Source: Parcubacteria group bacterium Gr01-1014_8 (GTDB lineage: Bacteria > Patescibacteriota > Minisyncoccia > Phycocordibacterales > UBA2100). Taken from it: a stretch of DNA of 64,000 bases. Positions 16,095-55,158 of the stretch are shown here, in pieces (the stretch's first letter is position 1; every line of letters begins with the position of its first letter). A program made the translations under genes and the position numbers. The DNA lies in the NCBI GenBank assembly GCA_007376385.1, contig VMGC01000001.1, positions 320,001-384,000 on the forward strand. The letters run 5' to 3'. The notes under the pieces are model-generated. The model did no database searches. It saw nothing but the letters and a program-made list of their open reading frames with translations, and was not told the DNA's origin.

Positions 16095-16110
16095 TCCCGC
16101 CGCTTAAATT

Positions 16111-16243: not shown

Positions 16244-16387
16244 CCGAGGAACCTTTATATTCCGTAAGAAAATAGTGTATGCCCCATGAGATAGATCATC
16301 TAGATCGGTGATGCATATAGTTCAGTAGTAACATATGAGATTCCTGAAAAAGTGGCGTGAATTTATCTCACGGGGTATGCTTCCGGC

Positions 16388-18386: not shown

Positions 18387-18440
18387 ACATAGCAAGGTCG
18401 GCGGTTGTCCACGCAAGGTCGGACCTTGCTTATATCTGCG
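18387..18440 (+). repeat. REP-like hairpin repeats (caaggtcgg...ccttg) at 5' end of transposase-like gene
   Basis: acatagcaaggtcggcggttgtccacgcaaggtcggaccttgc shares the motif caaggtcggacc with the repeats flanking the second transposase-like gene at 32819-32861 and 33573-33693. Confidence 0.5.
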
Positions 18441-19130: not shown

Positions 19131-19320
19131 ACGCACATGCTCATAAAATCTATGCCGGAGTGAATCTGGTACAGTAGCGTCTTGACGTATTTAGAAAGCG
19201 TTGTGTAAGACTCTGTAGGTAAAGCCGGTCGCCTTCACGGCAGTAGACTCTGAGGATATCTCCACAGAGTACGCCAGATATGGAAGACAGTAGCCGTCAG
19301 GGCTAGTATAATCTCGGCAT

Positions 19321-20274: not shown

Positions 20275-20315
20275 ATTACTGAGCCATAACCAGCGCAAAT
20301 TCCCCAAAATAGGCT

Positions 20316-20339
20316 GTGAACACGGATTATCTCGGATGT
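20316..20339. promoter_or_regulatory. Perfect 24-bp palindrome (attatctcgga tg tccgagataat) between HTH-TM gene and giant gene
   Basis: Read directly: 11-bp arms with a 2-bp spacer, 40 nt after the upstream stop, with no T-tract. It therefore looks more like an operator than an intrinsic terminator. Confidence 0.35.
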
Positions 20340-20597
20340 CCGAGATAATCGCGACATTTAAGATATTGGTTATACGATGAGTCTAAAGCAATTGAATTCA
20401 TCTAAAAATACGAATTTCTGCAGCAATTAAGTGCATAAAATGCGATGTAAAGCCATGAGAGTTAGCGCAAATACAGCCGTCGCATAAGTTCGGATCACCA
20501 AAATCGTTCGATTTTATCCCCATGGATAGTGGATATGGGTGTCTGGGTGCCCGACATCGCTATTAAAATCTAGATAAGTCGTGCGGGATGATACTCC

Positions 20598-32874: not shown

Positions 32875-33561
32875 TCACGGTGCCGCCGATTCCACGCGGA
32901 AGTCGAGCCATTCCGAGACCTGCGATTTAAAGTCGAGAGGCGAATCAAAGTACTCCGACAGCGCTGCGGCGTTCACGATGCGGCTCTCCAGACGTTTCTC
33001 ACGAGTGTAATCGTGAAAGCTCGACCAACGGTATCCGTCGAGGAATTTTTCCGCCGCGCGCCGGTTTGCGATGCCGGTTTCTTTCCAAGTCGGCTCGATG
33101 AGCTTGACGGGGTTCAGATGGATATACGAAACGAGGTATTTGAAGTATCGGTCGTCTGCCACGTGCGTCGCCTTATATTTCCCCTGAAAAAGGACGCCGC
33201 TTCGTTTTTGGCGGGTGTTAAAATACATCGTATACCCGGTTTGGAGCTTCTGCATGAATCGGGAAATACCGCCGTTCCTAATCTCACGAAGCATGAGGTG
33301 GAAGTGATTCGGCATGAGGCAGTGCGCGCATATGTCCACGAGCGGTTTTCCCCGATCAAGCGAGAGAAGATGGGGAAGAGAGGTCTGGATTTCGTTGCTG
33401 ATGTGCACGGTGTTCTCGCCGTTTGCAAGAAACAAAAGCGCGAGAAAGCGCTTATGGTCGGGTACAGAGGTAAAGATTTTCCGTTTTTCAGTGCCGCGGT
33501 TGTAGACATGATACGTCTCATCGACAGTAAACGGTATGCGTCTCATCTTCTGTATTTTCAC
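32875..33561 (-). CDS. IS200/IS605-family Y1 (HUH) transposase-like protein, RAYT-like
   Basis: ETYHVYNRGTEKRKIF; HUH in CLMPNHFHLML; FMQKLQTGYTMYFN; LFQGKYKATHV (Tyr); YIHLNP. Flanked on both sides by similar ~40-nt REP-like repeats in direct orientation. Confidence 0.75.
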   Translation of the reverse strand: MKIQKMRRIPFTVDETYHVYNRGTEKRKIFTSVPDHKRFLALLFLANGENTVHISNEIQTSLPHLLSLDRGKPLVDICAHCLMPNHFHLMLREIRNGGISRFMQKLQTGYTMYFNTRQKRSGVLFQGKYKATHVADDRYFKYLVSYIHLNPVKLIEPTWKETGIANRRAAEKFLDGYRWSSFHDYTREKRLESRIVNAAALSEYFDSPLDFKSQVSEWLDFRVESAAP

Positions 33562-35925: not shown

Positions 35926-36647
35926 GCGCTGTTCAGAGTGCGACGGTGTGTGGCGTATTGTCACTTGTGTTGGCGATTCTTTTCCCCATGCGAACTTTCG
36001 CGGGCTACGCTGAAAGTGCGTATTACTCGCAGTCGACCTACTACTCGCAGTCGACCTACTACTCGCAGTCGACCTACTATTCACAGGGAACATATGTGAC
36101 GACGTTTAGCAATAACGCGACGGCGGGAACTAATTTCACCGTCGCGGGCACGATTAATAAAGGTTCCGGTTCATTCGTCATCGACCATCCGCTCGATCCA
36201 AAAAATAAGCTGCTCTATCACTCGTTCGTTGAATCTCCTGACGTGAAGAATTTCTACGACGGTATAGCAACGCTCGACACAAAGGGCGAAGCAGTCATTC
36301 GGCTTCCCGCGTATTTTATGGCACTCAACAAAGAATTTCGGTACCAACTAAAACCCATTGGCGGGCCGCAGCCTGATCTGCACATTAAGGATGAAATCTC
36401 AGGAAATCGCTTTACGATTGCGGGTGGCGGGCCACGCGGGCGCGTATCGTGGCAGGTCACGGGGATCCGTCATGATCCGTACATCGAAGCGAATCCTATC
36501 GAGGTCGAGGTAAAAAAAGGTACAGATCCCGAGAAAAGCGTCTTCGTGCTCTATGGAGGGTTTTTGCACGAGGACATTTATCCGCAGACGATCCAACCCG
36601 CGATATCTACATATATGAGAAAGATACTTAGTTTGTTCGGCAATTGA
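35916..36647 (+). CDS. Secreted protein, paralog 3 of 3 with (STYYSQ)x4 tandem repeat and shared C-terminal domain
   Basis: Signal peptide. AYYSQSTYYSQSTYYSQSTYYSQGTY is a perfect 18-nt tandem repeat at 36031-36084. The C-terminus is GSGSFVIDHPLDPKNKLLYHSFVESPDVKNFYDG...VSWQVTGIRHDP. Confidence 0.6.
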   Translation: MQMSAVQSATVCGVLSLVLAILFPMRTFAGYAESAYYSQSTYYSQSTYYSQSTYYSQGTYVTTFSNNATAGTNFTVAGTINKGSGSFVIDHPLDPKNKLLYHSFVESPDVKNFYDGIATLDTKGEAVIRLPAYFMALNKEFRYQLKPIGGPQPDLHIKDEISGNRFTIAGGGPRGRVSWQVTGIRHDPYIEANPIEVEVKKGTDPEKSVFVLYGGFLHEDIYPQTIQPAISTYMRKILSLFGN

Positions 36648-36697
36648 CAGACGACTTATGTAGACATAGAGGAGATGTTATTGCATAGTAGCGCGAT

Positions 36698-37888
36698 ATG
36701 AAAAGGTCCACAGTGCTTTACGCCGTGTCCGCTCTTGTTATTGGAGGTTTTCTTGCGTACTGGTTTGTTCCTCTCGGGCCTGCATATTCTGAAGCAAATA
36801 CCATCGCGGATGGAGCATCAAATTTTAAAGAGCTCGCGGCGCGCTTCGGCGATCTCGCTCGCGAAAAGGGAGGAGCATATGCATTCGAGGTGTTGAAACG
36901 CGCTGAATTGCCGCCGAATACTGACCTGCATTTGTTGGGACATGAGGTCGGAAACATTCTATACGAACAGAAAGGTGTCGATGGTATTGCGGATTGCACG
37001 CAGGATTTTAGAAACGCCTGCTCGCATGCAATTGTTATCGGCGCTTTGAATGAGTTCGGCGGTGAGGCTGCATTACCTCTCATAAGCGATGCGTGCAAAA
37101 AGGCTCCAGGCGGAAGCGGAGCGTACACGATGTGTTATCACGGACTTGGCCATGGCGTGTTCGCGTTCTACAGCTATGACCTTTCAAAAACCGCTGAATT
37201 TTGCAGAAAGACCGGGACTCCCGAATACCACGAACGAGAATATGTTGAATGCGTCGGAGGTTCGGTGATGGAATTGATGGGAGGAGGCGGGCATGATAGG
37301 GAGGCGTGGCTTGCGGCGAGGGAGAAATATCTCGACCCGCATTCACCGCTCTCGCCGTGTATGGACAGCGCTGTGCCGGAAAGAGCGAAAATAATGTGCC
37401 TTACATATCTGACACCTCGTCTGTGGGAATTAGCAGGTATTGATATGGGAAACCCCTCACCTCATATGTTTGCAACTGCGTTCTCGTATTGCGATGCGAT
37501 CCCTCGCTCTCGCCCAGAACTTCGCGGTGCCTGCTACGGAGGGTTTGGCAAAGAATTCTTTCCGCTCGTAGCCTCGCGCGATATTCGCGATGATGTATCG
37601 TATTCAGACAGGCAACTCTCTACCGTCATCGATTGGTGCAGTTTTGCAGGGGATGTCGAAGGAACGTATGCGTGTGTGGGGGATGCGGTTGCGTCCGCAT
37701 TCTGGGGTGGGGAGAAAGATCCGAAAACAGCGTTTAGGCTCTGCGGCGCAGCAGATGGAACGTTGCAAGATGCATGTTTCGAACGACTCGCCGATGAAGT
37801 GACGATGTATATGCGAGGAGCAGAGAAAGATGAGCTATGCGCGCAGATCCCCGCACGTCTCGAGACCAAATGTTCAAAAAGTAGTTAG
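36698..37888 (+). CDS. Exported Cys/His-rich protein, family member P1 (unrecognised family)
   Basis: N-terminal TM anchor. Motifs DCTQDFRNACSHAIVIG, MCYHGLGHGV, ECVGGSVMELMGG and more than 14 Cys. Paralogous to 8 other genes in 37.9-55.2 kb. Confidence 0.65.
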   Translation: MKRSTVLYAVSALVIGGFLAYWFVPLGPAYSEANTIADGASNFKELAARFGDLAREKGGAYAFEVLKRAELPPNTDLHLLGHEVGNILYEQKGVDGIADCTQDFRNACSHAIVIGALNEFGGEAALPLISDACKKAPGGSGAYTMCYHGLGHGVFAFYSYDLSKTAEFCRKTGTPEYHEREYVECVGGSVMELMGGGGHDREAWLAAREKYLDPHSPLSPCMDSAVPERAKIMCLTYLTPRLWELAGIDMGNPSPHMFATAFSYCDAIPRSRPELRGACYGGFGKEFFPLVASRDIRDDVSYSDRQLSTVIDWCSFAGDVEGTYACVGDAVASAFWGGEKDPKTAFRLCGAADGTLQDACFERLADEVTMYMRGAEKDELCAQIPARLETKCSKSS

Positions 37889-37889
37889 T

Positions 37890-38933
37890 ATGCGGTTTCT
37901 GATGTGGATGGGCGGAGGAGTGCTTGCCGCTCTTTTTTCGTTTTTCCTGTTCCATTCATTGTATGCTGGGGGCGATCTATTCGTGCCGCATGAGTACGCA
38001 CCATTCGAAGAACAACGTGCGTATTGGCAACATCTCATCGAAAAAGAAGGTGCCGAAAACGCTCTCACTGCATTTTCTGTCCGAGTCGGATCATTATCTC
38101 TGAATACGCAGCATCAATTGGCTCACTCGTTCGGCGCTGCGCTTTTCCAGGCGGAAGGTATTGGTGGCATTTTCATATGCGATGCGCGATATTCGTTTGG
38201 TTGTTTCCATCAGTTCTTAGGAGATGCGATACAGGCGCTTGGTATCGAGCGTGTTCCGGATCTGAACACACGTTGCTTTGATGCGTCATCCGTAAGTCCC
38301 ATTTCTTGTACGCACGGCATTGGTCACGGGGTCCTCGCCTCGCTTGGGTATGATGATATAGCTCTCCAAAAAGGGCTCGAGATATGCAAAGGTCTGCCGG
38401 GAACGGAGCCCATTGGAGGATGTTATGGAGGCATTTTTATGGAATACAACGTACGCACAATGCTCGCAGAGCAGGCGACGGTACGAGAGTACGAAGGAAA
38501 TGTGTATGCGCCATGCGATTCGCTTGCGGCTGAATTTGTTCAAGGTTGCATATATTGGCAGCCACAATGGTGGCTTGTGACAGTGCTTGATGGGGTCTCT
38601 TCGGAAAAAGCGTATGCGAAAATGGGTTCATATTGCCGAGAATTCGCAAAAACACCGGAGTTATTGCGTGCATGTTTTGAAGGCTTGGGAAATATTGTCG
38701 AAGATGAGGCGGAGTATGAGCCATTGCAGGCGCGGAGGCTTTGTGACGCCGCAGGCGCGGGTACTCTGAGCAGCGTATATTGTCGCTCCGTCGGCGCGAA
38801 TCATTTTGGCATTGATGGCGGGGAAGATCAGGCTGTGTTGGTGTGCGAAGATCTTCAAGGAGACAAGAGAGCATATTGTATGGCGTATGCAAAAAATGAG
38901 ATAGGCCTCGCGCCGGAATTACGTGAATTATGA
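37890..38933 (+). CDS. Exported Cys/His-rich protein, family member P2
   Basis: Start placed at MRFLMWMGGG, right after the P1 stop. Motifs CFHQFLGDA, SCTHGIGHGV and GCYGGIFMEYN. Confidence 0.6.
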   Translation: MRFLMWMGGGVLAALFSFFLFHSLYAGGDLFVPHEYAPFEEQRAYWQHLIEKEGAENALTAFSVRVGSLSLNTQHQLAHSFGAALFQAEGIGGIFICDARYSFGCFHQFLGDAIQALGIERVPDLNTRCFDASSVSPISCTHGIGHGVLASLGYDDIALQKGLEICKGLPGTEPIGGCYGGIFMEYNVRTMLAEQATVREYEGNVYAPCDSLAAEFVQGCIYWQPQWWLVTVLDGVSSEKAYAKMGSYCREFAKTPELLRACFEGLGNIVEDEAEYEPLQARRLCDAAGAGTLSSVYCRSVGANHFGIDGGEDQAVLVCEDLQGDKRAYCMAYAKNEIGLAPELREL

Positions 38934-40063
38934 ACCGTTTATTTCTCGTAGTAATTGTGTTTATAGCGTTCGCTTTTATGGGATGGCAGGTGTGGGGCGA
39001 TGTGGACCCATTTGCTGAGTGTACCGGAGTCCATCGCAACGAATGTCTGGGCGCTGTCCTCAAAGAGATGGCAGATGTGCAGGGGATCGCGGCTGCGTTC
39101 GAGTCATTTACAGAACTTTACGACGAGCCGGATTTCACGAAAGATTGCCATCCAATAGTGCACGAAATGGGAAAAGGCGCATATGAGCGGTACAAACGAG
39201 GAAAACCACTCGAGGCGGTTCATGAACTTTCCTATTGCAGCTACGGTTTTTATCACGGATTTTTGGAAGCCATGGTACCGGATACTGGAGACCCCAAAAA
39301 GGCTCGTGAGTTGTGCGATAAGTTACAAGATGGCGTGACGGACGGCAGATCAGTTATCGGTCCTTGTCTTCATGGTTTTGGTCATGGGGTGACAGACGGC
39401 ACGAGGCCAGAGCGTTGGGGGAGTTTTGAGACCATGTCTGAGCCTTCGCTCGAGATATGTTCGTCTATCGCGCGACGTGATGATGAAAAAATGCTCTGTG
39501 CAGGCGGAGTTTTCAACGCGATCTCTATCATGTCGCTTTACAAGAAAAATGGGCTTGTCATTGATAAGGTGCATCCATACGCTCCGTGCGAGAAGCAAAC
39601 AGATGTGCGTGTCCGTGAGGCTTGCTTTCGGAATTTTCACCCGACAGTTTCTCATATAAATCATGAGCATTTTTTGCTTGCAGCGCACCAGGTTGAGGCA
39701 TTAGAGAAGGATGCGGATGCAATTCCCGCGATGGAGAACCTTGCGATCTATCAGTCAAGGAGGATGACCGAAGAATACACGGACCCATATATCGCTGCCT
39801 TTTGTCATCGAGTCCAGCCGCGGTTGCAGAACATGTGCGTAGAAGGTTTCGCGGTAGGTTTTCTTATCTTTGGCACACCAGGCGAAGAATATGAACGCGC
39901 TCTCACGTTCTGTCAGAATACCGAACTTCGCGGTGAACACGAGGAGCATTGCCTCAGACGAGTCATACAGTCTTCGAAGCAGCAATATTCAAGGGACGTG
40001 TATAAAAAAGTATGCATGAAAGTTCCGAGAGCGTTTCAGTACCTTTGCGAAGAACCCGCGTAA
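38930..40063 (+). CDS. Exported Cys/His-rich protein, family member P3
   Basis: Motifs DCHPIVHEMG, YCSYGFYHGF, PCLHGFGHGV and LCAGGVFNA. ATGA overlap with P2. Confidence 0.65.
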   Translation: MNRLFLVVIVFIAFAFMGWQVWGDVDPFAECTGVHRNECLGAVLKEMADVQGIAAAFESFTELYDEPDFTKDCHPIVHEMGKGAYERYKRGKPLEAVHELSYCSYGFYHGFLEAMVPDTGDPKKARELCDKLQDGVTDGRSVIGPCLHGFGHGVTDGTRPERWGSFETMSEPSLEICSSIARRDDEKMLCAGGVFNAISIMSLYKKNGLVIDKVHPYAPCEKQTDVRVREACFRNFHPTVSHINHEHFLLAAHQVEALEKDADAIPAMENLAIYQSRRMTEEYTDPYIAAFCHRVQPRLQNMCVEGFAVGFLIFGTPGEEYERALTFCQNTELRGEHEEHCLRRVIQSSKQQYSRDVYKKVCMKVPRAFQYLCEEPA

Positions 40064-40127
40064 AGAACCCTGCGACAGAAAGCGTGGGGCGTTCTCGGCG
40101 AGTCCGGTAAAGTACGTTCATTCATTT

Positions 40128-41636
40128 TCATCGGACTTCCAACAACCATGACAGTGCGTTATTCGCGTACGCGTCGCATGCGTCTAGCTCTTCGAATCCA
40201 AGAGCCTTGCAAATGACGTCGTTCTTGAAGCCCGCAAATTCACGCCAGTGTGTCGCACGCATAAAAAGAGCTCCTAGAAGGCAATTTTGTTGGTCGTTCG
40301 ATCCTGGGCCCATCTGACATTTTTCTACTACTTCTGAGTCAGTGAGATTCAGCCATGGGAGAGCGGTGTTGAATCCGATGCCAGTGAAGCACTTATCCCT
40401 GAATCGTGATGGGGCGCGGAGGCATCCCTTGATCGACTCTTCGCTGAAATAACCAGGGCTCCAAACGGTGGATTGATTCAAGTAACAGATCTCAAGCATT
40501 GGATCGTCTCCAGCAAGTTCGAGGGCATCGCACGGAAAATCAGGCCGTGTTTTATCGAGCCATGTTGTCGTATGTCCGCGTACGCCGAATCCAAGGGTGA
40601 CGAATACATTTTCCATGAATGCGCCGTGATAGCACATCTTTTTCCCACGTTCGTACGTGACAAGATCGCGGCACTTTTGCAGCGACAAGGGAAGGTCATA
40701 ATTGTGATACACCATGAGCCCATGGCCGATGACGTGCTCGCAGAAGATGCCTCGCAGCGAGTCAGCATTCTCTTTTAAACACCCCGCCGCATACTTTTTT
40801 ACGGTCTCATCGTCTCCGACATTTCCAAGTGATGATTCGATGACACCGTGGTAAAAACCGAATTGGCATCTTGTGTCTATCATCTGTTCATCGAGTATTG
40901 AGAGGCCGTTCAGCGCGTATGCGATACGGCCTAAAAAGTGTGCCTCCGAATGACACTCTCCCACCGCTACCTGCGAACCTGGATTATCCGGACGCTGTGA
41001 AGGATCCATCGAATCCTTGACCAGTTCATCGAGCATTTTTTCGTATCCGAACACGCGCATCCAATATTCGAGTTCAGCGTCAGTCCTGCTCACCTCTATC
41101 ATATTCAATTTTTCCAACACCGATACTCCAGATCTCGGAAAAAATCTGAAATAGAAATGCATCAGCGACGCATGAAATTTTCGAGCAGGAGATAGCGCCC
41201 CATAACGAGGCAGCTCGGATGGATCTCCGCTCCCCGAATCCTTGACTAGTACCGTACCTGAACGTTCCGGGTCCATGTGGTCATGAAAATTCCACGTTCC
41301 TGCTTGTTTGAATTTAAAGCGGAATGATGCGTCTTGCAGCAGTTCGTGGCAAGAATCGAATCCTTTATACGCGTCAGTGCCGCACTCACGGATATCCGAC
41401 CCGGGATATTGTGTATGCGTGGGATGTACGTCAGATGCAATCCAATGAGGTTCGGTGTCTTCATTCACGAAAAGGACGCTTTCTCCTTGGACTATCTCAA
41501 CCTGCGACGGTTCAAAACCGCTCGCCGTCATGCGAATCGTAGTGTATGTAGTTTCTGCCGAGAGTGTCTGCGGCAGTGCGCAAAGAATTGATAGCAGGAC
41601 GAGAGATGCGTTGGAAGCTGCTGTTTTTTTTGTCAT
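40128..41636 (-). CDS. Exported Cys/His-rich family member P4 with N-terminal His-rich cupredoxin-like domain
   Basis: Signal peptide. N-terminal domain TIRMTASGFEPSQVEIVQGESVLFVNED...WNFHDHMDPERSGTVLV, then the family motifs ECHSEAHFLG, RCQFGFYHGV, FCEHVIGHGL and MCYHGAFMEN. Confidence 0.65.
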   Translation of the reverse strand: MTKKTAASNASLVLLSILCALPQTLSAETTYTTIRMTASGFEPSQVEIVQGESVLFVNEDTEPHWIASDVHPTHTQYPGSDIRECGTDAYKGFDSCHELLQDASFRFKFKQAGTWNFHDHMDPERSGTVLVKDSGSGDPSELPRYGALSPARKFHASLMHFYFRFFPRSGVSVLEKLNMIEVSRTDAELEYWMRVFGYEKMLDELVKDSMDPSQRPDNPGSQVAVGECHSEAHFLGRIAYALNGLSILDEQMIDTRCQFGFYHGVIESSLGNVGDDETVKKYAAGCLKENADSLRGIFCEHVIGHGLMVYHNYDLPLSLQKCRDLVTYERGKKMCYHGAFMENVFVTLGFGVRGHTTTWLDKTRPDFPCDALELAGDDPMLEICYLNQSTVWSPGYFSEESIKGCLRAPSRFRDKCFTGIGFNTALPWLNLTDSEVVEKCQMGPGSNDQQNCLLGALFMRATHWREFAGFKNDVICKALGFEELDACDAYANNALSWLLEVR

Positions 41637-41664
41637 CGAACCCTAGTATAGCGGAAGAAGTTTT

Positions 41665-43245
41665 TCAGGCTACTTCGCGTTTTCTGATGATGAGGAACAC
41701 GATCGAGAGGATGGGAAGTATGAGCACATATTCTCCTAGAAGTGAGTACAGGGTTTTCGTGTCTTTGAGCGGCACTGATGCTGCGAGTATAGAAGGAGCT
41801 GAGTCAGAGCGCATCTCCACTTTTCCGCGGTTTGTGACGATGGAAGATGCCAGCCCGTTTCCTGCGATAGCTATGTAGCGATCATTTTCGACCGCACGTA
41901 CCTTTCCTAGGGAAAGTACGAGGTTGTCTACCAGATGCGATCCATGGAACCACGCCTGTCCGGCTGGATTTACGAATACCCGTGCTCCGCCCTGGGCAAG
42001 TTTCTGGTACAGATTTGGCGAGAGAATATCCGAACAGAAAAGCGCTCCGACTTCTGTTCCGTTGATATGTGCAGGGAACAGTTTTGTTCCTGAAGCAACG
42101 GAACGTTCCCTCATTGTGCTCTGCTCTGCATCAGACACACCAATAAGGCGGAGCAGCATGGCAAAGAGCCAGGGCGTATATTCTCCCTGTGGCACCAAGA
42201 ATATCTTCCGGTATGTTTCAGGCATCAAGGTGCCGTTTTCGTACATACGCATCTGGACGTATCTTTCAGAACCCGTTCTCACCGGACCTGAGTCAATGAA
42301 TGTAACGGCGTGATCGGGAAAAACTAACTTCGCGAATTCAGTCGGGTCTTCGTTACTATGAACGAAAAAATCTGTCGCTTCCGGAAAGACAATGATATCC
42401 GGCGGCTCATTTTCTTTTGCCCATATTCGTATGTATTCTGCGACTTCGCGTGCATGTTTTCGCTTGACCTCTAACGAATACAGCGAGGTGACAGGCATGC
42501 TTGTTGAAACGAGTGCGACACGCACCGATCCAGATTCATTTTGAAAAGTCCAACTCGGAAGAGAATAGGCTCTATCAAGAGCCGCAAGAGTCAACGCTCC
42601 GGAGAGGATAAGTGCGAACACGAGCCCTCGTTTTCTCGCGTTTTCATACTGAAAAATTACGTGATACAGAGAAAAGCCGAGAAAGACCGCAAGAAAGGTC
42701 AGTATGTATATGCCGCCAATGGAAGCGGATCGAAGAAAAGGAGAAAAATTAGTAAGAGAATATCCGAGCATCGTAGGTGAGAAGTGCGGGCCGGAAAATG
42801 AAAGGTCGCGTGCTGTGAGTATGGCAAATCCCCACATTTGCGCGTATTGCAATACTGTCCAAAGAGAAGCGGCAAGCAGTGCGGCATAGAAACCTGAGCG
42901 CTTGGATCGGACAAAGCCAGCCGCAAAGAGTGAGAAAAAGACGGCGAGGACGAGAGTGACCATGAGCCATGAGAACCCTACGAATATGATCCCTTTCCAC
43001 GGAGGAGAACCAGTCCAGTCGAGTGGCAACACGTCCCAGAACCATGCTATGGCAGTACCGCTGTAGGCAAAGCCAAAGAGAAGTCCAAGTATTGACGCAT
43101 CTCGGTATTGTTTCTCTTGCAGGCGGTGCAATACGTGAGCGAAGGGAATGAGTCCGAATACGGATACCAGCCATATGGACGGGAACAGTATTCCCGATGC
43201 AGCGATAACGCCTGAGAATATTGCAAGCAAACCAAAGACTACCAT
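41665..43245 (-). CDS. lnt: Apolipoprotein N-acyltransferase
   Basis: About 7 N-terminal TM helices, a C-terminal CN-hydrolase domain with FPEA (Glu), Lys, and GALFCSDI (catalytic Cys), then a terminal TM helix; 526 aa. Confidence 0.7.
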   Translation of the reverse strand: MVVFGLLAIFSGVIAASGILFPSIWLVSVFGLIPFAHVLHRLQEKQYRDASILGLLFGFAYSGTAIAWFWDVLPLDWTGSPPWKGIIFVGFSWLMVTLVLAVFFSLFAAGFVRSKRSGFYAALLAASLWTVLQYAQMWGFAILTARDLSFSGPHFSPTMLGYSLTNFSPFLRSASIGGIYILTFLAVFLGFSLYHVIFQYENARKRGLVFALILSGALTLAALDRAYSLPSWTFQNESGSVRVALVSTSMPVTSLYSLEVKRKHAREVAEYIRIWAKENEPPDIIVFPEATDFFVHSNEDPTEFAKLVFPDHAVTFIDSGPVRTGSERYVQMRMYENGTLMPETYRKIFLVPQGEYTPWLFAMLLRLIGVSDAEQSTMRERSVASGTKLFPAHINGTEVGALFCSDILSPNLYQKLAQGGARVFVNPAGQAWFHGSHLVDNLVLSLGKVRAVENDRYIAIAGNGLASSIVTNRGKVEMRSDSAPSILAASVPLKDTKTLYSLLGEYVLILPILSIVFLIIRKREVA

Positions 43246-44114
43246 CGTAAAGATCCGCGATAATCAGCGAGTCGGATGGAAAAGACGATATGCAGGATCG
43301 CCCAGATATAAAAGAAGAGCGGAGGGAATACATACGCGAGTACGATAGAACCCCACGCGGTATATGCAAATAGCGCATACAGAGCAAAAACAATGGCATG
43401 GATCGCAAGCATATCCTTCACATATGCACTTTGACGGTCAGGCTTGCTTCCGAATCGAAAATAAAAGTGCACGTACCAGCATACGTAATGCAGCAGAATG
43501 ACCGAGCCGGTGAGTTTTGTCGATGAAACTTGAATGTCAAAAAACCACAACGCAAATAGTCCTGCGGTGATAAGCAAAAGATACGCACTCAGTGCATCAG
43601 GACGGTATGTTCCGATCGCAATGCTCGCGACATAGGGAACTAGCAACACGATCGCGAGCATGACAAGAGACGAAGAGAATGTGGCTCCCAACATATATCT
43701 TGAGATAAGAGCTGTGAAAAGAAGCACTGGCGGCAACTGTTCAAGAGCGCGAGAGAGAGAACGTTCCTTCCCGAAGAGCGTCACTTCATCCTGAAAATGA
43801 TGTATGAAAAACACTACAGAAGCGACGAGAGCAAACCATGCTACTTGATCCGTTAGAATGGCAAGTGTGAACAGTGCAGTTGTAAGAGTAACGAATGCAG
43901 CGACCCACGTCATCGTCATCTTACCGGCTTTCCATTGGTAGTAGTATGCCCCGAGAAAATGACCTTGGCCGAAGATACTGAATGCGAGTCCGACCTGCAG
44001 GGGAGAAAGGTAGTAAACCGCAAGCGCGACAATGGCGAGGCCAAGCGATTTTTGTATGACCAATTCACGTGTCATAGTAGAAGTATGGTAGCACATACTG
44101 GCATATGAAATCAC
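43239..44114 (-). CDS. Polytopic membrane protein of unknown function (~8 TM)
   Basis: 291-aa hydrophobic ORF overlapping the lnt start by 7 nt. No motif recognised. Confidence 0.45.
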   Translation of the reverse strand: MISYASMCYHTSTMTRELVIQKSLGLAIVALAVYYLSPLQVGLAFSIFGQGHFLGAYYYQWKAGKMTMTWVAAFVTLTTALFTLAILTDQVAWFALVASVVFFIHHFQDEVTLFGKERSLSRALEQLPPVLLFTALISRYMLGATFSSSLVMLAIVLLVPYVASIAIGTYRPDALSAYLLLITAGLFALWFFDIQVSSTKLTGSVILLHYVCWYVHFYFRFGSKPDRQSAYVKDMLAIHAIVFALYALFAYTAWGSIVLAYVFPPLFFYIWAILHIVFSIRLADYRGSLRW

Positions 44115-45304
44115 ATCTTATTTTGATCGTGGGAGGCATAGGGCTATTTTTGCTTGGTATTTTTTTCATAGTCTCTATGCCAGTAGGTGCAATCGTCGTC
44201 GAAGACGTCGTTGAAGATCTAGGGGAATGTCTCCACGAGAATCAGGCAGAATTAGAGAGTTTTCCATGCGTGAGGGAGAAAATACAGTCGCTTCTTCTCG
44301 AATTGCCTGCGCATGAGATCATGCGTGCGGTTGAAGCGTCGTTTCCATATCAGTGTCATGCTGTTGGTCATATTCTCGGGCAAGAAACGTACAAGATGCT
44401 CGGCTCAGTGGAAAGCGCCTTCGGAGCATGCTCTCCTGCCTCGTGCGTTCACGCGTGCACACACGGAGTTGTCGGGGAAGTCTTTCTCTCTACACCCGGG
44501 ATAGGAGGATTGCCAGAAGAATGGAGGCATCCGAACATCGACTTGATACGCTCGGAAGGCTCTTTGCTTTGCAGGGATAGAACGACATGTCATGCGGTCG
44601 GTCATGTACTTTTTTTACTTTTTTTTGAGGACCTCTCAGGTGCGCTTTCTATGTGTGATGAAATCGCAGGAGATGAGGCATTTACATGTCACAGCGGCAT
44701 ATTTATGGAGAATGGTGGCGGGACATTTGCGCGCACGATCCCTGGCTTAGATGTTGAGCGGGAAGAGTATCGTGACCCCACTGATCTTCTTTCTCCCTGC
44801 AATACGGTCGCTGACCGCTACAAAAAGGCATGCTTTAGATTCTTGTATATAAATCAATATGACTATTTTAAGGATCACGGCATTACTGATCCGCATACGA
44901 TCTTCAACACGCAGACGGATGCCTGCGGTATTGTCACGGATCGTTTGCAGCGCAGAGCATGTTTCAGAAGCGTGGGCTGGTCTCTCCAGGGGATGCGCCG
45001 ACCGCTTCTTTCCGCGCACGTGCTCTGCAACTCGCTGACTGTCATAGAGGATCGCAGTGCATGTCTTTTTGGCGTGAGCGATTCATTCACGGATCAGGGT
45101 ATGAGCATCTCGGAAACCGGAGGGGCGTGCAGAGCAGTAAACAATGAGCAAGGCAAACGCGCATGTTATGGAGGAATTTTCATGGCACTTTCAGACAGAG
45201 AACCTGGTCTTCTCCCAAGCGTGTGCGATGGCGCTTCTGACAGCGCATGTCAAATGTCGTTGCAGGAATTTTTAGCGAATCCAGACAGTCGTGATTCTAT
45301 TTAG
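44105..45304 (+). CDS. Exported Cys/His-rich protein, family member P5
   Basis: TM anchor. Motifs YQCHAVGHILG, SCVHACTHGVVGE, TCHAVGHVLF and TCHSGIFMENGG. Confidence 0.6.
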   Translation: MKSHLILIVGGIGLFLLGIFFIVSMPVGAIVVEDVVEDLGECLHENQAELESFPCVREKIQSLLLELPAHEIMRAVEASFPYQCHAVGHILGQETYKMLGSVESAFGACSPASCVHACTHGVVGEVFLSTPGIGGLPEEWRHPNIDLIRSEGSLLCRDRTTCHAVGHVLFLLFFEDLSGALSMCDEIAGDEAFTCHSGIFMENGGGTFARTIPGLDVEREEYRDPTDLLSPCNTVADRYKKACFRFLYINQYDYFKDHGITDPHTIFNTQTDACGIVTDRLQRRACFRSVGWSLQGMRRPLLSAHVLCNSLTVIEDRSACLFGVSDSFTDQGMSISETGGACRAVNNEQGKRACYGGIFMALSDREPGLLPSVCDGASDSACQMSLQEFLANPDSRDSI

Positions 45305-45330
45305 ACACTATTTACTCAATTGTTGGCACA

Positions 45331-46446
45331 ATGAGTCACATGATACAGCGTCTCACAGTGGGTGTGCTCGTGGCTGTTCTATCAGCGTTAGGAAGTGTCT
45401 TCTGGTTTCTGTACAACGAACCCCCTCATCATTGTCTGAAAGAAGAAAACGTACGGTGGTGCTTCATACACGAGGCGCAAGCTATTGCCGCAATAGAGGG
45501 AGCACAGAAGGCATATTCATATGTGCACGATGTCATTAAAAAATATAGCGATTATAAGACCGAACACCTGGCACTTCATTATGTTGGTATGAAGGCATAT
45601 GACGAAGCGGGATCAGTAGACAAGGCTTTTACGCTCATCTATGGGGAAGATCAGATGGCTGATGATTCGATATATTACAGCGGTTTTCAACACGGGCTCT
45701 TCGAGCGATATTTTGAGGTGAATGGAGCACAGACACCGACTGTGCTCGGGAATGAGACGTGTCACACATATGCTTCATCGGAGTCCCTCGATGAGTTCAC
45801 CAGTACCCGCACGCGAGTGCTCGCAGCGGAATGCTATCACGCGATCGGTCACGCGATAATGTTCATATCTGACAATAATGTTGAGGCATCACTTTCGGCA
45901 TGTGACGCGTTCCCTCATCAATGGGAGCAACGGTGGTGTTACCATGGAGTGTTCATGGAGAATTATTATCTACACATTCCCGAATATCATCTCGGCGTCG
46001 CACGGCCGGATGCCGAAGGGCTTTCTGTAGTCGAGCTTTGCATGCGCGTTGGGGAAAAATATCGGGGAGAGTGCAGTTATTTCGTGGGCTGGGTGTATAT
46101 GCAAATGCATCCAAACGACTTTGCCGGAGCATTTTCCGAATGCGCGATGTTTCCGCAGAGTGATGCAAGGATATGTATCGCACGCGTGGGACGTTTTTTT
46201 GTAGCCGCATCGTCCGCAGGCGATCTCTCGGGCATGATCGCAACGTGTGAGAAGGCGCACCCATTCCTGCGTGAATGTTTGTACGGAACAGCCATCGGAT
46301 TGAACCAGGGAGTGGGTTTGTTTGAATATGTCAATAAAGGCAAAGGGCTATGTGATGTTCTTGAGGACGATATGCACGCGGATTGTGAAAACGCCCTGAC
46401 ACGGTCTCATGAAAGTCTTGCGCGGAAAGTAATAACCGAACTCTGA
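45331..46446 (+). CDS. Exported Cys/His-rich protein, family member P6
   Basis: TM anchor. Motifs ECYHAIGHAIMF and WCYHGVFMENYY. Confidence 0.6.
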   Translation: MSHMIQRLTVGVLVAVLSALGSVFWFLYNEPPHHCLKEENVRWCFIHEAQAIAAIEGAQKAYSYVHDVIKKYSDYKTEHLALHYVGMKAYDEAGSVDKAFTLIYGEDQMADDSIYYSGFQHGLFERYFEVNGAQTPTVLGNETCHTYASSESLDEFTSTRTRVLAAECYHAIGHAIMFISDNNVEASLSACDAFPHQWEQRWCYHGVFMENYYLHIPEYHLGVARPDAEGLSVVELCMRVGEKYRGECSYFVGWVYMQMHPNDFAGAFSECAMFPQSDARICIARVGRFFVAASSAGDLSGMIATCEKAHPFLRECLYGTAIGLNQGVGLFEYVNKGKGLCDVLEDDMHADCENALTRSHESLARKVITEL

Positions 46447-47320: not shown

Positions 47321-47342
47321 CGAGTAATTATAGCTCGTAGTA

Positions 47343-47450
47343 AAGGTTCCTCGGAGCAAGCTCCGAGGTATTATGGAGCTCGCTTCGCTCGCGCAGTCTC
47401 GCAGCAGAGCTGCGAGATATTGAACCTGTGTTTGCTCCTCGGCTCGGAAA
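47343..47450 (-). repeat. Intergenic repeat family, L-part copy C (inverted, with 46-nt internal insertion)
   Basis: The reverse complement gives atttccgagccgaggagcaaacacaggttcaata[46-nt insert]cctcggagcttgctccgaggaaccttt, matching 52281-52334. Contains the perfect hairpin cctcggagc-ttg-ctccgagg. Confidence 0.6.
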
Positions 47451-47571
47451 TGCAAAAGTGCTCTTTTGCGTTTCTCTCGCAACGCTCGCAAATAAAGCGC
47501 ATGAGGGCGACCCATTTATGCGTATCGTTCTTCGCATCGTATTTGCTTGACATAGGCGTGCAGAATATGAT

Positions 47572-50665: not shown

Positions 50666-51058
50666 ATGCGAGGGACGCAGGTTTTCGATAATATGTCGCT
50701 GACATATATTCTTGTTTCCGTACTCCTCTTTGTATTGGTAGTAACTTCTGTTCTGTATCTAAAGAAAGGGGATGTCCAGGATGTAAGGAAGCAAATTATT
50801 CTTGAGCAACAAGGATTTCAGCCGAGTGAGCTCACTGTCAAAAAAGGAAGCACGGTAACATTCACTACGACCGCCGCGCGACAGTTCTGGCCGGCTTCAA
50901 ATTTGCATCCAAGTCATGACATCTATCCTGATTTTGACGCGAAGCGGCCTCTTGAGAGCGATGAAGTATGGAGCTTCACTTTCAATACAGCAGGCGATTG
51001 GCCATTTCATGATCACATCCGATCATACTATGTTGGTGTCGTACACGTAATCGAGTAA
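50666..51058 (+). CDS. Membrane-anchored standalone cupredoxin-like His-rich domain protein
   Basis: TM anchor, then QGFQPSELTVKKGSTVTFTTT...WPASNLHPSHDIYPDFD...WSFTFNTAGDWPFHDHIRSYYVGVVHV. Same domain as the N-termini of P4 and P8. Confidence 0.55.
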   Translation: MRGTQVFDNMSLTYILVSVLLFVLVVTSVLYLKKGDVQDVRKQIILEQQGFQPSELTVKKGSTVTFTTTAARQFWPASNLHPSHDIYPDFDAKRPLESDEVWSFTFNTAGDWPFHDHIRSYYVGVVHVIE

Positions 51059-51072: not shown

Positions 51073-52272
51073 ATGCGTTTGTATATGAAGATAAGTGTCC
51101 TCTCAGCATTCTTGTTTGTGGGGCTCGCAGTGTTTTTCTTTATGCCGGGTACTCGGATGGCGCGCGCGGCAGAGGCCTGTTCCACCGGGCACGAAAAACA
51201 AGATGAGCAGATACAATGCTGGCTCGATATCATGCGTGCGGAAATGAGAGATGATGGAATAGGAGCCGCAATGAAGGTCTTTTCGTACGTATACAACACG
51301 TACCCCACATTCTCAGCTACAGGCTGTCATGTGCACGCGCATCGCGTGGGCGATATGGCGTATTATGAATTTTATCTTGCGAATCCTGATCTTGATGCTC
51401 TGGAATTTCCGCAAGAGACGGCAAGTTGCGGGTATGGCTTCTATCACGGCTTTTTCGAGCATCTTATTCAGGATAATCCCGATCCGTCATACATAACGTC
51501 CACATGCACATATTTTCATGAGCGGCTCGGGCACATGCTCGGCGACATGAGACAGATCTGCTATCACGGGAGCGGGCATGGACTTATGCTTGCGAGAACA
51601 GAAGAAGTAACGAACGATGATTGGGGGAATGCACAGGCGTTCGCAACAAAGCCGCTCGAACAGTGCGAGAAACTTTCTGAGGCGACAGTGCGTGAAAAAG
51701 AAGAATGTCGTGAGGGGATCTATAATGTGCTTGTTGATTGGATGGAGGGGAAAGAGTATGGATTTGTCTACAACGACATCCACCCGTTCGCAGTTTGCGA
51801 TGAGCTTCAAAATTACGATTGGAAAAAGGCATGTTACTACGAAATGTCCCAGAAATTGGACCGAGTATCGGCACGTGACCCTGTGCAGCTTGTCAAAATT
51901 ATTGCTCCGATACAGGACCCGAAATTACAACGCACCGCATTGTTGGTAGGTATCGCGGGAATGATGCAGTCAGTTGCAAACACCAATGCGTACGAATCCT
52001 TCATGCGTACGTGTGCGCAATTGGGCGAGAAGTCCAGGAACGACTGTGCCATCGGCGTCATTTCCGGGCTCTTCGAGCACGGGCTTCCTCAGGAAGAGTA
52101 TGTGAATGCCATACGCGCATGTCGTCTCGAGGAAATTGGATCATCCGGGATGGCTGCTTCGTGCTGGAAAGAGGTTTCGAATAAATTAATACGTTTTTAT
52201 ACCCCCCAGCGTGTGCAAGAGATCTGTCCAGAATTTCCAGAGGAATACCGATCTCTGTGCAGCAAGAAATGA
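51073..52272 (+). CDS. Exported Cys/His-rich protein, family member P7
   Basis: Motifs GCHVHAHRVG, SCGYGFYHGFFEH, ICYHGSGHGLML and ECREGIYNVL. Confidence 0.65.
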   Translation: MRLYMKISVLSAFLFVGLAVFFFMPGTRMARAAEACSTGHEKQDEQIQCWLDIMRAEMRDDGIGAAMKVFSYVYNTYPTFSATGCHVHAHRVGDMAYYEFYLANPDLDALEFPQETASCGYGFYHGFFEHLIQDNPDPSYITSTCTYFHERLGHMLGDMRQICYHGSGHGLMLARTEEVTNDDWGNAQAFATKPLEQCEKLSEATVREKEECREGIYNVLVDWMEGKEYGFVYNDIHPFAVCDELQNYDWKKACYYEMSQKLDRVSARDPVQLVKIIAPIQDPKLQRTALLVGIAGMMQSVANTNAYESFMRTCAQLGEKSRNDCAIGVISGLFEHGLPQEEYVNAIRACRLEEIGSSGMAASCWKEVSNKLIRFYTPQRVQEICPEFPEEYRSLCSKK

Positions 52273-52280
52273 AGAGCCTC

Positions 52281-52467
52281 TTTTATTTCCGAGCCGAGGA
52301 GCAAACACAGGTTCAATACCTCGGAGCTTGCTCCGAGGAACCTTTATCTGTCGAGGATAGCAAGCGAAATGCGAAAGTGCAGGTTTCGCATTTCCGAGCG
52401 ACACAGACAGCAAAGGTTCAAAGCCCCGCGGCTTGCCTGCCTGTGCGATGCACGCAGACAGGCCGCG
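52281..52467 (+). repeat. Intergenic repeat element, most complete copy B (L-part 52281-52334 + R 52335-52467)
   Basis: R is identical to 16111-16243 apart from 1 nt. The L-part matches the inverted copy at 47343-47450. R overlaps the last 41 codons of the minus-strand gene P8. Confidence 0.75.
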
Positions 52468-53894
52468 GAATTTGGGACGCATAACCCTTCAACAAGCTGC
52501 GGGTCGGATGCCTTTGCAAATACGAGCACGATCTTTTGGCACTGCAGAAGCTCTTGCTCTAACGTAAATTGGCCGCAAAATGCAATGGAGTGCCGTGCGC
52601 CCTTTTCAGGTGTCTCACGATGGAAGAAACCCGACACAACGCCGAGAATGCATGCTGCCCATTCTTCTTGATCCATGAGTTGACTGCACTCTTTTGCCAG
52701 ATGCGTGAATTCTGGCTCACCGACGCGGCGCCGTACCTCGTCATTTATAAGCGCTTGCATTGATTCGAGCCGTGCTGCCTTTACGGGTATCTGTCTTAGT
52801 AACGAGAAACCGTCTTCAAGTGAGTATTTGTTGTGGCGGATGTATCCGACACCGATCTCTATGGCGCATCCCGTCCAATATTCTGGCACTGCCCTGCAAA
52901 CACCGAGGGGATCGTCATGCCTGAACGAGATCCCGTATTCACCGGAACCAAGAGCTATTGAGAGCGAATTGAATACGCCGGAAGCACACCGTGTTCTTTC
53001 CCACTCTGGTTGAATTGCGCTCTCGCATGAGAGGAGTGCGCTTTTCGCCATTTTGTATTCGTCACCCCACTTGGTTGAATCAATAGAGTCGAACAGTGCA
53101 TGTCCGATGCCGTGATAACACGCGCCGACAGCATTGTGCCGTGATGTTGGCGTTCCTAGATGTGTGCTATCTCGCATCTTTTCGCAGTAGGCAACGGTTT
53201 GAGCGACTCCCTCATCTCCTGTGTCGCGAAGGGCTTGTTCCATGAATCCATGATAGAAACCGAAATTGCAATACGTGGTTTCTATCCTGTCAGCGACAGC
53301 GCCTCCGGCTTTGTATAGTTGATATGTCTGTATGCCGATATAGTGCGAAACGTCGTGACAATTTCTCTGAAATAACGGATCCTCAGCATTCCACTTTTCG
53401 AAAGCGTCGAACACTGCGTCGAGTCCTCCTTTCTTAAGAATACGGTCTATTTCACCGTCCCAGCAGTAGGCTTTTATTGTGTCGGTCGAGGAGTCGAGAC
53501 ATGCTTCGACACTTTCTCCTTCATATCCTAGGACGATAATTCTTCCCTGCACCATTGGGTGCATATGATCGTGGAATGGCCAGACCCCTGCACGCGAAAA
53601 AGTAAATTCCCATGGATCACCGGGCTGAATCGCGTGTGTTGGGTCGAAATCCGAATAGCGTCCATGGGACGGATGAGAATCCGACGCAGGCCACGAATCT
53701 GATATCGATGAATTAACGAAGATGACCGTGTCACCTTTGTTGATAGTAAGCCTCTCAGGCGAGAATCCGGTATTGGTTCTTGTGATGGTGTATGTCTGCG
53801 GAGAAAGATATGCGTATGCCATTCCTGCAAGAACCGCGACAGCAAGAAAAATAACTGCCAAAAGCTTAACAGAAAGAGAAAAATGCGCGCGCAT
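52344..53894 (-). CDS. Exported Cys/His-rich family member P8 with N-terminal cupredoxin-like domain; C-terminal 41 aa encoded by repeat element R
   Basis: N-terminal domain TYTITRTNTGFSPERLTINKGDTVIFVNSS...WPASDSHPSHGRYSDFD...VWPFHDHMHPMVQGRIIV. Family motifs NCHDVSHYIG, YCNFGFYHGF, ACYHGIGHAL and RCASGVFNS. The stop codon lies inside R copy B. Confidence 0.65.
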   Translation of the reverse strand: MRAHFSLSVKLLAVIFLAVAVLAGMAYAYLSPQTYTITRTNTGFSPERLTINKGDTVIFVNSSISDSWPASDSHPSHGRYSDFDPTHAIQPGDPWEFTFSRAGVWPFHDHMHPMVQGRIIVLGYEGESVEACLDSSTDTIKAYCWDGEIDRILKKGGLDAVFDAFEKWNAEDPLFQRNCHDVSHYIGIQTYQLYKAGGAVADRIETTYCNFGFYHGFMEQALRDTGDEGVAQTVAYCEKMRDSTHLGTPTSRHNAVGACYHGIGHALFDSIDSTKWGDEYKMAKSALLSCESAIQPEWERTRCASGVFNSLSIALGSGEYGISFRHDDPLGVCRAVPEYWTGCAIEIGVGYIRHNKYSLEDGFSLLRQIPVKAARLESMQALINDEVRRRVGEPEFTHLAKECSQLMDQEEWAACILGVVSGFFHRETPEKGARHSIAFCGQFTLEQELLQCQKIVLVFAKASDPQLVEGLCVPNSAACLRASHRQASRGALNLCCLCRSEMRNLHFRISLAILDR

Positions 53895-53982: not shown

Positions 53983-55158
53983 ATGAAGTTCAGACTGAGT
54001 GTCTATATATGGCCTATTATCGCTGCGGCAGCGTTGCTCGGGGGCGCCTTTTTCTACGTTAATTTTTCCTCGCGTGCTGAAGCTGCAGCCATAGTCGAAA
54101 CATGTAAAAAGGAGCCAGACAACATGTTCTGTTACGAACGCGAAGTGCCGAAGCTGTATTCTTCTTACTCGATCCCGGAACTATTTGAATTCATCCGCGA
54201 GATCCGTCGTCTCGATCCGTCGTATCAGTTTTGCCATGTACTTGCGCATAAGCTCGGCGAAGAGGCCGTTGCAGAAGACCCGTCGCGCTGGCTGGATATG
54301 ATCCCTCTGAACCCGCGTGATGGAATGTGCAGCAACGGATTCATTCATGGCGTCATCGTAGGCAGGTTTCGCAATGACACGCTCGACAAGGAAACGCTCG
54401 AGAAAACGATACCTGATCTTGCGAGGGCGTGCGAACCGCGGGCGAACTGGTCTCCCAGTTCGTTGGACCAAGCGATTTGCTATCACGGCATGGGCCACCT
54501 TTTTATGTTCATAACGAACGCTGACATGCGGCTCTCGCTGGATACGTGCGCACGCATATCGCGAAGTGCAACTGGGGATTTTATGCGCGTCTGCCGAGAA
54601 GGCGTATTCATGCAAACATATCAGCCGCTTGAGCCGGACGATTTTGCTCTGCTAGAATTACTTCCTGAAAAACCGACGAAAGAAAATTACCGGCGCTTAT
54701 GCGCAGCGTACGCGAACGATCCAGAAGAAGGAGCGTGTCTTCGGGAAGCGTGGCCGTTCTTCCGCACCGACATTCTTAAAGGAACTGGTGCCATCAGTTT
54801 TTGCTCAGGACAACCAACCAAGGAGGAGGAAGAGATGTGCTACGAATCGGCTTCAACTATCATAGGAAGACAGCTTCTCGGGAACGATGAAAAAGCAAGT
54901 GCGGCGTGTGATGCTCTTCCTCAGAAATGGCAGAGCATATGCTACATTGCGGCTGCTCAAGCACTGCTGGAAGAAGATAGGGCGACGGGGAAGGCTGCAA
55001 TTTCTCTCTGCGAGAGAGGAAAGAATGGTGTTGCTGATACCTGCTTAAAGACACTTGCGATGCGAGCAAACTGGATATTTTCAAGCGGTGCAGCGGAAAA
55101 GGACGCATTTTGCGAGGCATTGCCGCGATTCAAGGAGGAGTGCGATCGGCGGCGCTAA
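53983..55158 (+). CDS. Exported Cys/His-rich protein, family member P9
   Basis: Motifs FCHVLAHKLG, MCSNGFIHGV, ICYHGMGHLF and VCREGVFMQT. Confidence 0.65.
   Translation: MKFRLSVYIWPIIAAAALLGGAFFYVNFSSRAEAAAIVETCKKEPDNMFCYEREVPKLYSSYSIPELFEFIREIRRLDPSYQFCHVLAHKLGEEAVAEDPSRWLDMIPLNPRDGMCSNGFIHGVIVGRFRNDTLDKETLEKTIPDLARACEPRANWSPSSLDQAICYHGMGHLFMFITNADMRLSLDTCARISRSATGDFMRVCREGVFMQTYQPLEPDDFALLELLPEKPTKENYRRLCAAYANDPEEGACLREAWPFFRTDILKGTGAISFCSGQPTKEEEEMCYESASTIIGRQLLGNDEKASAACDALPQKWQSICYIAAAQALLEEDRATGKAAISLCERGKNGVADTCLKTLAMRANWIFSSGAAEKDAFCEALPRFKEECDRRR

Follow-up and report, generated by a model that had tools for sequence, protein, structure and literature searches.

The window analyzed here is a 64,000-nt stretch of Parcubacteria group bacterium Gr01-1014_8 (assembly GCA_007376385.1, contig VMGC01000001.1, positions 320,001–384,000 of the forward strand). 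Within it, the minus-strand gene P8 ends inside one of two copies (R-A and R-B) of a repeat, and two further elements, S47 and S52, lie in the same window. The features of the locus are as follows.

52344–53894, minus strand: P8 open reading frame, 516 aa, deposited as TSC87250.1
52479–53894, minus strand: native part of P8, residues 1–472
52347–52478, minus strand: repeat-encoded tail of P8, residues 473–516, 44 codons
52344–52346, minus strand: TAA stop codon of P8, the reverse complement of the TTA inside TTTAT
52348–52477 (edges ~52347–52478), plus strand: R-B, 3'-truncated R-type element, CTGTCG...GGGA
16109–16258, plus strand: R-A, full-length R-type element, TTTAT-CTGTCG...GGGA-CCGAGGAACCTTTAT, between SecA and gatB
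16244–16258, plus strand: CCGAGGAACCTTTAT, the consensus 3' terminus of the repeat family, identical to 52333–52347
52250–52347, plus strand: S52, S-type element with a degenerate 5' part; 68.9 bits, E = 8.5e-14
47337–47498, minus strand: S47, full-length long-form S-type element in a divergent intergenic region; 147.8 bits against a model whose training set included S47
51073–52272, plus strand: 399-aa Cys/His-family gene (TSC87249.1), convergent with P8

The deposited protein TSC87250.1, encoded on a 407,897-bp contig, matches the 516-aa P8 exactly. With a Cupredoxin_1 domain at residues 14–121 (Pfam) and a Cys/His-rich region, P8 is predicted to be a membrane-anchored or secreted protein. 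The Cys/His-rich family (motif CYHG-x-GH) has at least eight paralogs (sites 36698–46446, 40128–41636, 51073–52272, 52344–53894, and 53983–55158), some with an N-terminal cupredoxin domain and most without a Pfam match, and a free-standing 130-aa cupredoxin-like ORF lies at 50666–51058.

The last native residue of P8 is Cys472 (codon 52479–52481), and the C-terminus reads ...EGLC-VPNSAACLRASHRQASRGALNLCCLCRSEMRNLHFRISLAILDR, with the entire tail encoded by the antisense strand of R-B. The TTTAT that holds the stop codon is at once the 3' terminus of S52 and the 5' boundary of R-B; the terminal CCTTTAT of S52 thus provides the P8 stop, while the 5' end of the same element runs across the final codons of the 399-aa gene and their stop. 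An earlier sequence-only reading had the minus-strand P8 frame run through this repeat copy, and the end residues that it quoted match those found here. The repeat origin that it proposed stands, though the count of 41 codons becomes 44 (52347–52478), the repeat edge that it placed at 52467 lies at 52477/52478, and the stop that it credited to R falls in the TTTAT common to the S52 3' end and the R-B edge. Its description of the other copy as purely intergenic agrees with the position of R-A between SecA and gatB. The comparison that it drew with paralog P4 is uninformative, the C-termini of P8 and P4 aligning poorly.

The two R copies are nearly identical: 16109–16243 and 52343–52477 differ at a single position (16144 C vs. 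52378 T), and a 63-nt R core has two matches in the window and none in shuffled sequence. R-B is predicted to fold at -56.7 kcal/mol (z = -4.4). It is free of stop codons in four of six frames—only 7% of 132-nt windows in the stretch are equally open—so read-through from P8 needs no special explanation. Elsewhere, a 29-nt match (90%) to the apex of the long R hairpin lies on the minus strand at 12657–12685, in the intergenic region between Wzy and SecA, and is also present in the sister locus L001. At S47, a 205-aa minus-strand ORF called in assembly ERZ27284378 (46898–47515) starts inside the element and reads through it; its true start is likely the ATG at 47320, just past S47, which would make S47 another spot where a repeat inflates a gene call.

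The ancestral end of P8 is preserved in sister assemblies. A 258-kb MEGAHIT contig of ENA ERZ27284378 and a Logan contig of SRR8863434 both encode P0001, a 490-aa protein that is 100% identical to P8 over residues 1–472 and then carries a different 18-aa tail, ending GKIDAQEHIPECSNQSSY; the point of divergence is the exact repeat boundary, and an independent Logan contig has the same intact tail. The P0001 tail carries a C-x(6-10)-C pair that aligns with the C-terminal Cys pair of homologs, and this pair ends 13 of 15 aligned relatives, P0001 included (the set comprising P0001, 13 more distant homologs, and one paralog from the window). P8 keeps the first Cys of the pair (472) and has lost the second. 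The sequence-only reading had held the tail to be element-derived, unless orthologs lacking R were to show the same tail; P0001, an ortholog not fused to R, has another, homolog-like one, and the origin it proposed is borne out. On the evidence of these alignments, the tail of P8 is derived and repeat-encoded, not ancestral.

The cost of the fusion to P8 is one Cys of the conserved terminal pair, and what it brings is a basic tail with four Cys that is conserved nowhere; the R-encoded peptide was absent from other proteins among the cluster representatives of a large protein database. Rather than a gained function, the fused tail is most likely a by-product, either neutral or mildly harmful. 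Both haplotypes exist in assemblies, and some 45 kb of comparable sequence is identical between the sister assemblies and the window but for one SNP, inside R-A. This identity indicates that both states occur in one near-clonal population and that the change is recent. At the loci of distant P8 homologs, a synteny comparison made to polarize the 36-kb insertion described below found no common neighborhood and no element.

Alignment of the two haplotypes shows what was lost. Positions 1–11417 of L001 correspond to 63894–52478 of the window and 11641–21473 to 16243–6411, and the 223 nt between these blocks are missing from the window. Of these, 56 nt are the end of P8, 106 nt are spacer, and 61 nt are, by the family model, from the 3' part (the 3' third) of a long-form R element, i.e., the displaced 18 codons of P8 were deleted along with 167 bp downstream. 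The loss begins exactly after GGGA, where the R-A core also ends, and the deletion ends show no clean microhomology, only a displaced AATTT. In the sister order, SecA is followed by one R-type element (197 nt) and, across 106 bp, by the convergent, intact P8; in the window, SecA is followed by R-A and gatB and, 36 kb further on, by the 399-aa gene, S52, R-B, and the convergent, truncated P8. Three junctions are specific to the window (R-A...GGGA/CCGAGGAACCTTTAT-ATTCCG; S52...CCTTTAT/CTGTCG; and R-B...GGGA/CGCATAACCC, the last leading into P8), where the sister assemblies have R-AACGAGCGG, P8 codon 472-GGGAAAATTG, and S52-TTTAT/ATTCCG.

At the native edge of the break, the P8 coding sequence GCATAACCCTTCAAC (52479–52493) is aligned by the family model to the element 3' terminus GGAACCTTTAT, at about the same offset from GGGA as the 3' terminus in R-A. 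It may be a cryptic end or target, or a chance match, and the resemblance is too weak to build on.

The 36-kb difference between the two haplotypes concerns a segment with the following features.

16259–52347, plus strand: 36-kb segment with gatB, two Y1_Tnp genes, a 4051-aa ORF, Lnt, sulfatases, and Cys/His paralogs
32875–33561, minus strand: Y1 HUH transposase-like gene, 228 aa, with NHFH, FQ, and YIHLNP motifs; PF01797 35.7 bits (cutoff 23)
18405–19130, plus strand: a second, more diverged Y1 HUH transposase-like paralog; PF01797 18 bits, below cutoff

In the window, this segment is bracketed by R-A and R-B as 130-nt direct repeats and, since 16244–16258 is identical to 52333–52347, it is also flanked by a 15-nt direct repeat. 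In ERZ27284378, the block is a separate 36,210-bp contig (k139_22030) whose last 139 nt repeat the first 139; this terminal overlap equals the assembler's k and gives the contig the appearance of a circle. Its closing junction runs S52...CCTTTAT/ATTCCG...gatB, without R, and the same junction is found on a Logan contig. The segment matches its flanks in GC content and GC skew, neither of which breaks along its length, and with its housekeeping cargo (gatB, lnt) it does not look foreign. Judged as an integrative element, it has the flanking direct repeats (R-A/R-B), but scans of its unannotated ORFs (seven against Pfam, nine against NCBIfam, and seven against PHROGs) detected neither a tyrosine nor a serine recombinase.

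The segment is 18 nt longer in the window than in the circular contig (36,089 vs. 36,071 nt), which may be a copy-number change of the 18-nt tandem repeat TACTACTCGCAGTCGACC at 36021–36086; the difference must fall in 36054–41072, the rest of the segment having been compared. The block also holds two sulfatases and a giant 4051-aa ORF (20598–32753) with many GNVGIGTT(S/T)P-type repeats, locally high GC, and negative GC skew.

How did the repeat come to end the gene? The simplest account would be that a mobile R landed near the 3' end of P8, at codon 472/473, and pushed the native end further downstream, and this would explain why the switch from native to new sequence falls on a repeat edge and fits a genome in which family members are dispersed, multi-copy, and nearly identical. 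Yet the displaced 56 nt of P8 and the 167 nt that follow them are nowhere in the stretch, R-B is without the family 3' end, its other side adjoins S52 and not P8 sequence, the sister haplotype already has a full-length R-type element 106 bp from P8, and the stretch also differs by the 36-kb segment bracketed by R copies. The missing 223 bp and the truncation of R-B largely refute a simple insertion, and we regard it as very unlikely. Of the earlier proposal that an intergenic mobile repeat remodeled the P8 C-terminus, the repeat-derived end is retained and the clean mobile insertion is not.

A different doubt is whether the fusion occurs in cells at all, i.e., whether the deposited contig wrongly threads a 36-kb circle into the chromosome via the repeat. 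The fusion haplotype is found in the deposited MAG contig only, the two otherwise 100% identical assemblies have intact P8 and a closed circle, Logan contigs cross both the codon-472 site and the S52-to-gatB junction unbroken, and the junctions R-A/CCGAGG and R-B/P8 left no sign in the ENA and Logan assemblies. However, none of the three junctions specific to the window has more than 5 nt in common with the alternative contexts, far below any assembler's overlap, and the fusion needs a second R copy, with R-A bearing a SNP of its own (16144 C) that is absent beside SecA in the sister assemblies. Because of these short overlaps and this SNP, we consider an assembler artefact quite unlikely. R-B and the R-A core are, moreover, cut at the same base; GC content and skew run smoothly through the segment; and the ends of Logan contigs fall exactly k-1 nt inside TTTATCTG... 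and at ...CCTTTAT, which allows extra contexts for both of these element ends. At the k of 31 used by Logan, L125 ends (position 5582) exactly 30 nt into TTTATCTGTCG... and L005 starts (position 1) with the 30-mer ending ...CCTTTAT plus A. Such ends are expected if the R 5' end and the S52 3' end each have a second context in SRR8863434, and are compatible with that context being the S52-R junction or further copies elsewhere.

A rearrangement anchored at the R element, not an insertion, probably produced the P8 tail on a truncated gene. In the proposed ancestral state, P8 would have been intact (490 aa) and convergent with SecA, with a full-length R-type element 106 bp beyond its 3' end. Rearrangement at that element would have removed the 223 bp (61 nt of the element, the 106-nt spacer, and the last 56 nt of P8, i.e., the rest of the 18 codons and the stop), after which the ribosome would pass from Cys472 into the antisense of the truncated element, open in that frame, and terminate 44 codons further on, at a TAA that the TTTAT junction with S52 creates. 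The order of events and the enzyme responsible are what we infer.

Since the 36-kb segment lies between two R copies in the same haplotype, recombination at repeats appears to reshape the locus. No one-step mechanism leads from the sister state to that of the window; every model takes two or three events. One route would be a Campbell-type exchange between R copies; were the integrated state ancestral, the sister would then have arisen by excision, with a 145-nt R element also lost at a TTTAT site. Another would be a transposition-like cointegrate in which R was duplicated at the S52 terminus, followed by a deletion adjoining R-B. As in Campbell-type or cointegrate systems, the segment has a direct repeat on either side here and occurs as a closed circle in the sister, and the deletion starts at a repeat copy. 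Unlike in those systems, neither an integrase nor a DDE transposase turned up among the scanned ORFs, which gave just the Y1 genes and a protein with an excisionase-type HTH; moreover, the observed circle is without R, and hence one exchange is not enough to turn either state into the other. The sole SNP in 45 kb lies in R-A, which suggests that the R copies are old and that the integrated state may be ancestral, in which case the sister state needs two events of its own. The excisionase-type protein (19321–20274; 317 aa, N-terminal HTH, PF12728, with TIGR01764 below cutoff) adjoins the first Y1 gene of the segment.

The repeat itself has relatives well beyond this genome. R, S47, and S52 share a module, GCATTTCCGAGC-N-GGTTCAA, plus hairpins, and by sequence and structure comparison R is a lineage-specific, diverged variant of a structured intergenic repeat family of CPR/Patescibacteria. 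The family spans 115–200 nt, the elements measured here being 113–197 nt long with 3–5 helices that include a long-range P1, and copies were found in 28 groundwater-type metagenome loci (S-type) and one Saccharibacteria MAG locus; in the scans of metagenomes and genome collections, R-type copies were found in no genome but this one. The layout runs from TTTAT through P1 (5' end and center), a variable hairpin P2, conserved loops, and one or two GC hairpins in AGGUU:AACCU to CCTTTAT, with the consensus TTTATTAGCGACGTAGAGCGAGAGAAAT - variable hairpin - ATTTCCGAGCCGAGGAGCTAATACAGGTTCAATA - GC hairpin - GGAACCTTTATT, the GC hairpin often being followed by a second module and hairpin. The helices are P1 (UAUUAGC:GCUAAUA), P2, P3 (AGGUU:AACCU), and the enclosed hairpins. 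Covariation strongly supports this fold: 89.3% of cells in the family structure are paired, compared with 35–50% when partners are slid, and 18 pairs change on both sides, which none of 500 shuffles reached.

R belongs to this family and has its fold. Against a covariance model built without any R sequence, R-A scores 66.8 bits over its full length (model positions 1–157 aligned, 3' end at the terminus CCGAGGAACCTTTAT) and the long-form R of the sister 57.1 bits, also full length; the loss of the 3' strand of P3 holds R-B to 27.3 bits. The minimum-free-energy fold of R-A retains P1 as CUGUC:GACAG, a whole-helix swap. S52 matches model-wide, with a degenerate 5' part and without the optional second module. 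Rfam 15 gave no match at gathering scores in the stretch and nothing over the elements at E up to 5–10 in the stretch and nine family loci. Full-text literature searches, on CPR repeat elements and on the core sequence, found no description of the family.

Several further leads were followed and dropped. GGTTCAA raised the possibility of a tRNA, tmRNA, or att-site remnant; ARAGORN found none, and the motif is the 5' strand of P3. A scan of genome collections with GCATTTCCGAGC...GGTTCAA returned 84 matches in unrelated taxa, near the estimated chance expectation, and among those re-checked only one (L059) was real by BLAST, the model finding nothing in five others. Viral contigs gave three chance matches and then none.

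Element ends repeatedly coincide with stop codons. Among 13 convergent genes that reach an element 3' end, nine stop at the TAA complementary to the terminal TTTAT, where reading frame alone would predict 1/3 (p = 0.009), at eight independent metagenome loci (L106, L098, L115, L104, L114, L109, L093, and L101) and in P8 at S52. Co-oriented upstream genes sometimes stop in the 5' TTATTAG, and a few genes run 8–29 codons into an element. The sequence-only reading had proposed a search for other copies fused to ORF 3' ends; other copies do touch gene ends by this count, with minimal overlaps. From these stops and short overlaps, the 44-codon tail of P8 appears as the extreme of a general tendency, which may reflect either insertion targeted to a stop-codon context or selection against longer read-through.

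What kind of entity the family represents can be addressed from its structure, its neighbors, and the two Y1 genes. The latter are paralogous (1.5e-39 to 2.1e-39), and their best NCBIfam model is NF047646 (REP-associated tyrosine transposase), at 43.6 and 21.7 bits with a cutoff of 80. It is possible, if tentative, that R/S elements are non-autonomous mobile DNA, moved as folded single strands by a Y1 HUH transposase, in the manner of IS200/IS605 or REP/RAYT, and inserted 3' of TTTAT. The elements have hairpins near both ends, no terminal inverted repeats, TTTAT at both boundaries, and GTAG in the conserved 5' block; G-U and A-C counts at paired positions are similar (35 vs. 28), so neither strand is favored; two Y1_Tnp genes lie within the 36-kb segment; and the circle and the window relate to each other as a TTTAT site without and with a 145-nt R element, although this one pair fits TTTAT-targeted insertion and equally a 5-bp duplication. 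Weighing on the other side, no Y1 gene lies within a few kb around 25 other elements, the Y1 motifs match subclass 2.1, listed without REP association (PMC6006769), and the 5' TTAT pairs within P1 and is hence part of the element. The two hairpins are also unlike, P2 varying freely while the loops are conserved, which is the opposite of a transposase-recognized hairpin.

That pattern of variation suits a functional RNA better: strongly conserved single-stranded blocks, covarying stems (long-range P1 among them), a 3' domain that consists of a GC hairpin and then UUUAUU, and the position of many copies directly after gene ends could describe a structured 3'-UTR or small RNA with a terminator-like GC hairpin and UUUAUU, in which case modules would have been duplicated around the genome and the ORF overlap would be incidental. 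A primarily RNA role is likewise possible, if tentative. Against it, orientation to neighbors is not fixed, with several copies antisense to both; several copies occur per locus in both orientations; a simple terminator scan does not flag the elements; the sense strand has no G-U excess; and no Rfam family matches.

Among known systems, the REP/BIME repeats and REPINs with their RAYT (TnpA_REP) proteins come to mind, being like R/S dispersed extragenic hairpin repeats, often beside stop codons and sometimes mosaics of modules, and the likeness may extend to the GTAG of the R/S 5' block and to the RAYT-like Y1 genes in the genome. REPs, however, are single palindromes of 20–40 bp (PMC3733652) or 21–65 nt (PMC6006769; Quentin et al., 2018), whereas R/S elements are multi-helix folds with a long-range helix and not short palindromes. 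The GTAG lies in the conserved block GCGACGTAGAGCGAG, ~11 nt from the foot of P2, and is replaced in R (GGATAG) and in S47. In contrast to RAYT systems, R/S elements do not flank the Y1 genes (the nearest is at least 2.1 kb away, with gatB between). Both Y1 proteins score below the NCBIfam RAYT cutoff, and one of the two passes that of PF01797.

R/S elements also resemble IS200/IS605 derivatives (PATE) in having no terminal inverted repeats, no clear target duplication, and subterminal hairpins: these are P2 on the 5' side and a GC hairpin on the 3' side, and the ends are not reverse complements. As at IS608-type ends, for which a geometry of subterminal hairpin and short sequence has been described (PMC6006769), TTTAT stands at the left flank and right end, ~20 nt before the first and ~10 nt after the last hairpin. 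Nearly all copies follow a TTTAT or TTAT and finish with TTTAT. Any target duplication is indistinguishable from the element's own TTTAT. Unlike in IS200/IS605, the left and right hairpins are unrelated and the left varies between copies, no tnpA(IS200) or tnpB was seen nearby, and the 5' TTAT is base-paired inside the element. Nor, on inspection, do the aligned 5' and 3' ends show the inverted termini of a TIR-type MITE (Correia, RUP).

Rickettsia palindromic elements (RPEs), mycobacterial MIRUs, and Correia elements are repeats that enter ORFs or extend over stop codons, and P8 resembles these cases in that part of a host protein, or the stop codon of its gene, comes from an intergenic repeat. 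The insertion of an RPE keeps the reading frame of the gene and preserves the coding sequence on either side; P8, on the contrary, lost its native end by deletion and took a new C-terminus from the antisense strand of the repeat, and there is no sequence relationship. The kind of event seen here, a repeat rewriting a protein end, is already known and ordinary.

What the fusion adds is a dated example of an intergenic repeat rewriting a protein end, with the before and after states in one population, which is rare. More important is the covariation-supported repeat family of CPR/Patescibacteria that it led to, absent from Rfam and with termini found repeatedly at stop codons. The same applies to the evidence that a 36-kb block with essential genes is both integrated and a closed circle in a near-clonal population; essential genes on an excisable or independent circle would be unusual for a CPR bacterium. 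Both by-products bear on how tiny, repeat-poor CPR genomes rearrange. It is an unlikely reading that R/S elements form a new TTTAT-bounded mobile or recombinogenic class in CPR whose crossovers switch the 36-kb block between integrated form and circle; if true, a CPR bacterium would keep essential genes on an excisable module, and repeat-driven rearrangements would routinely rewrite the ends of neighboring genes.
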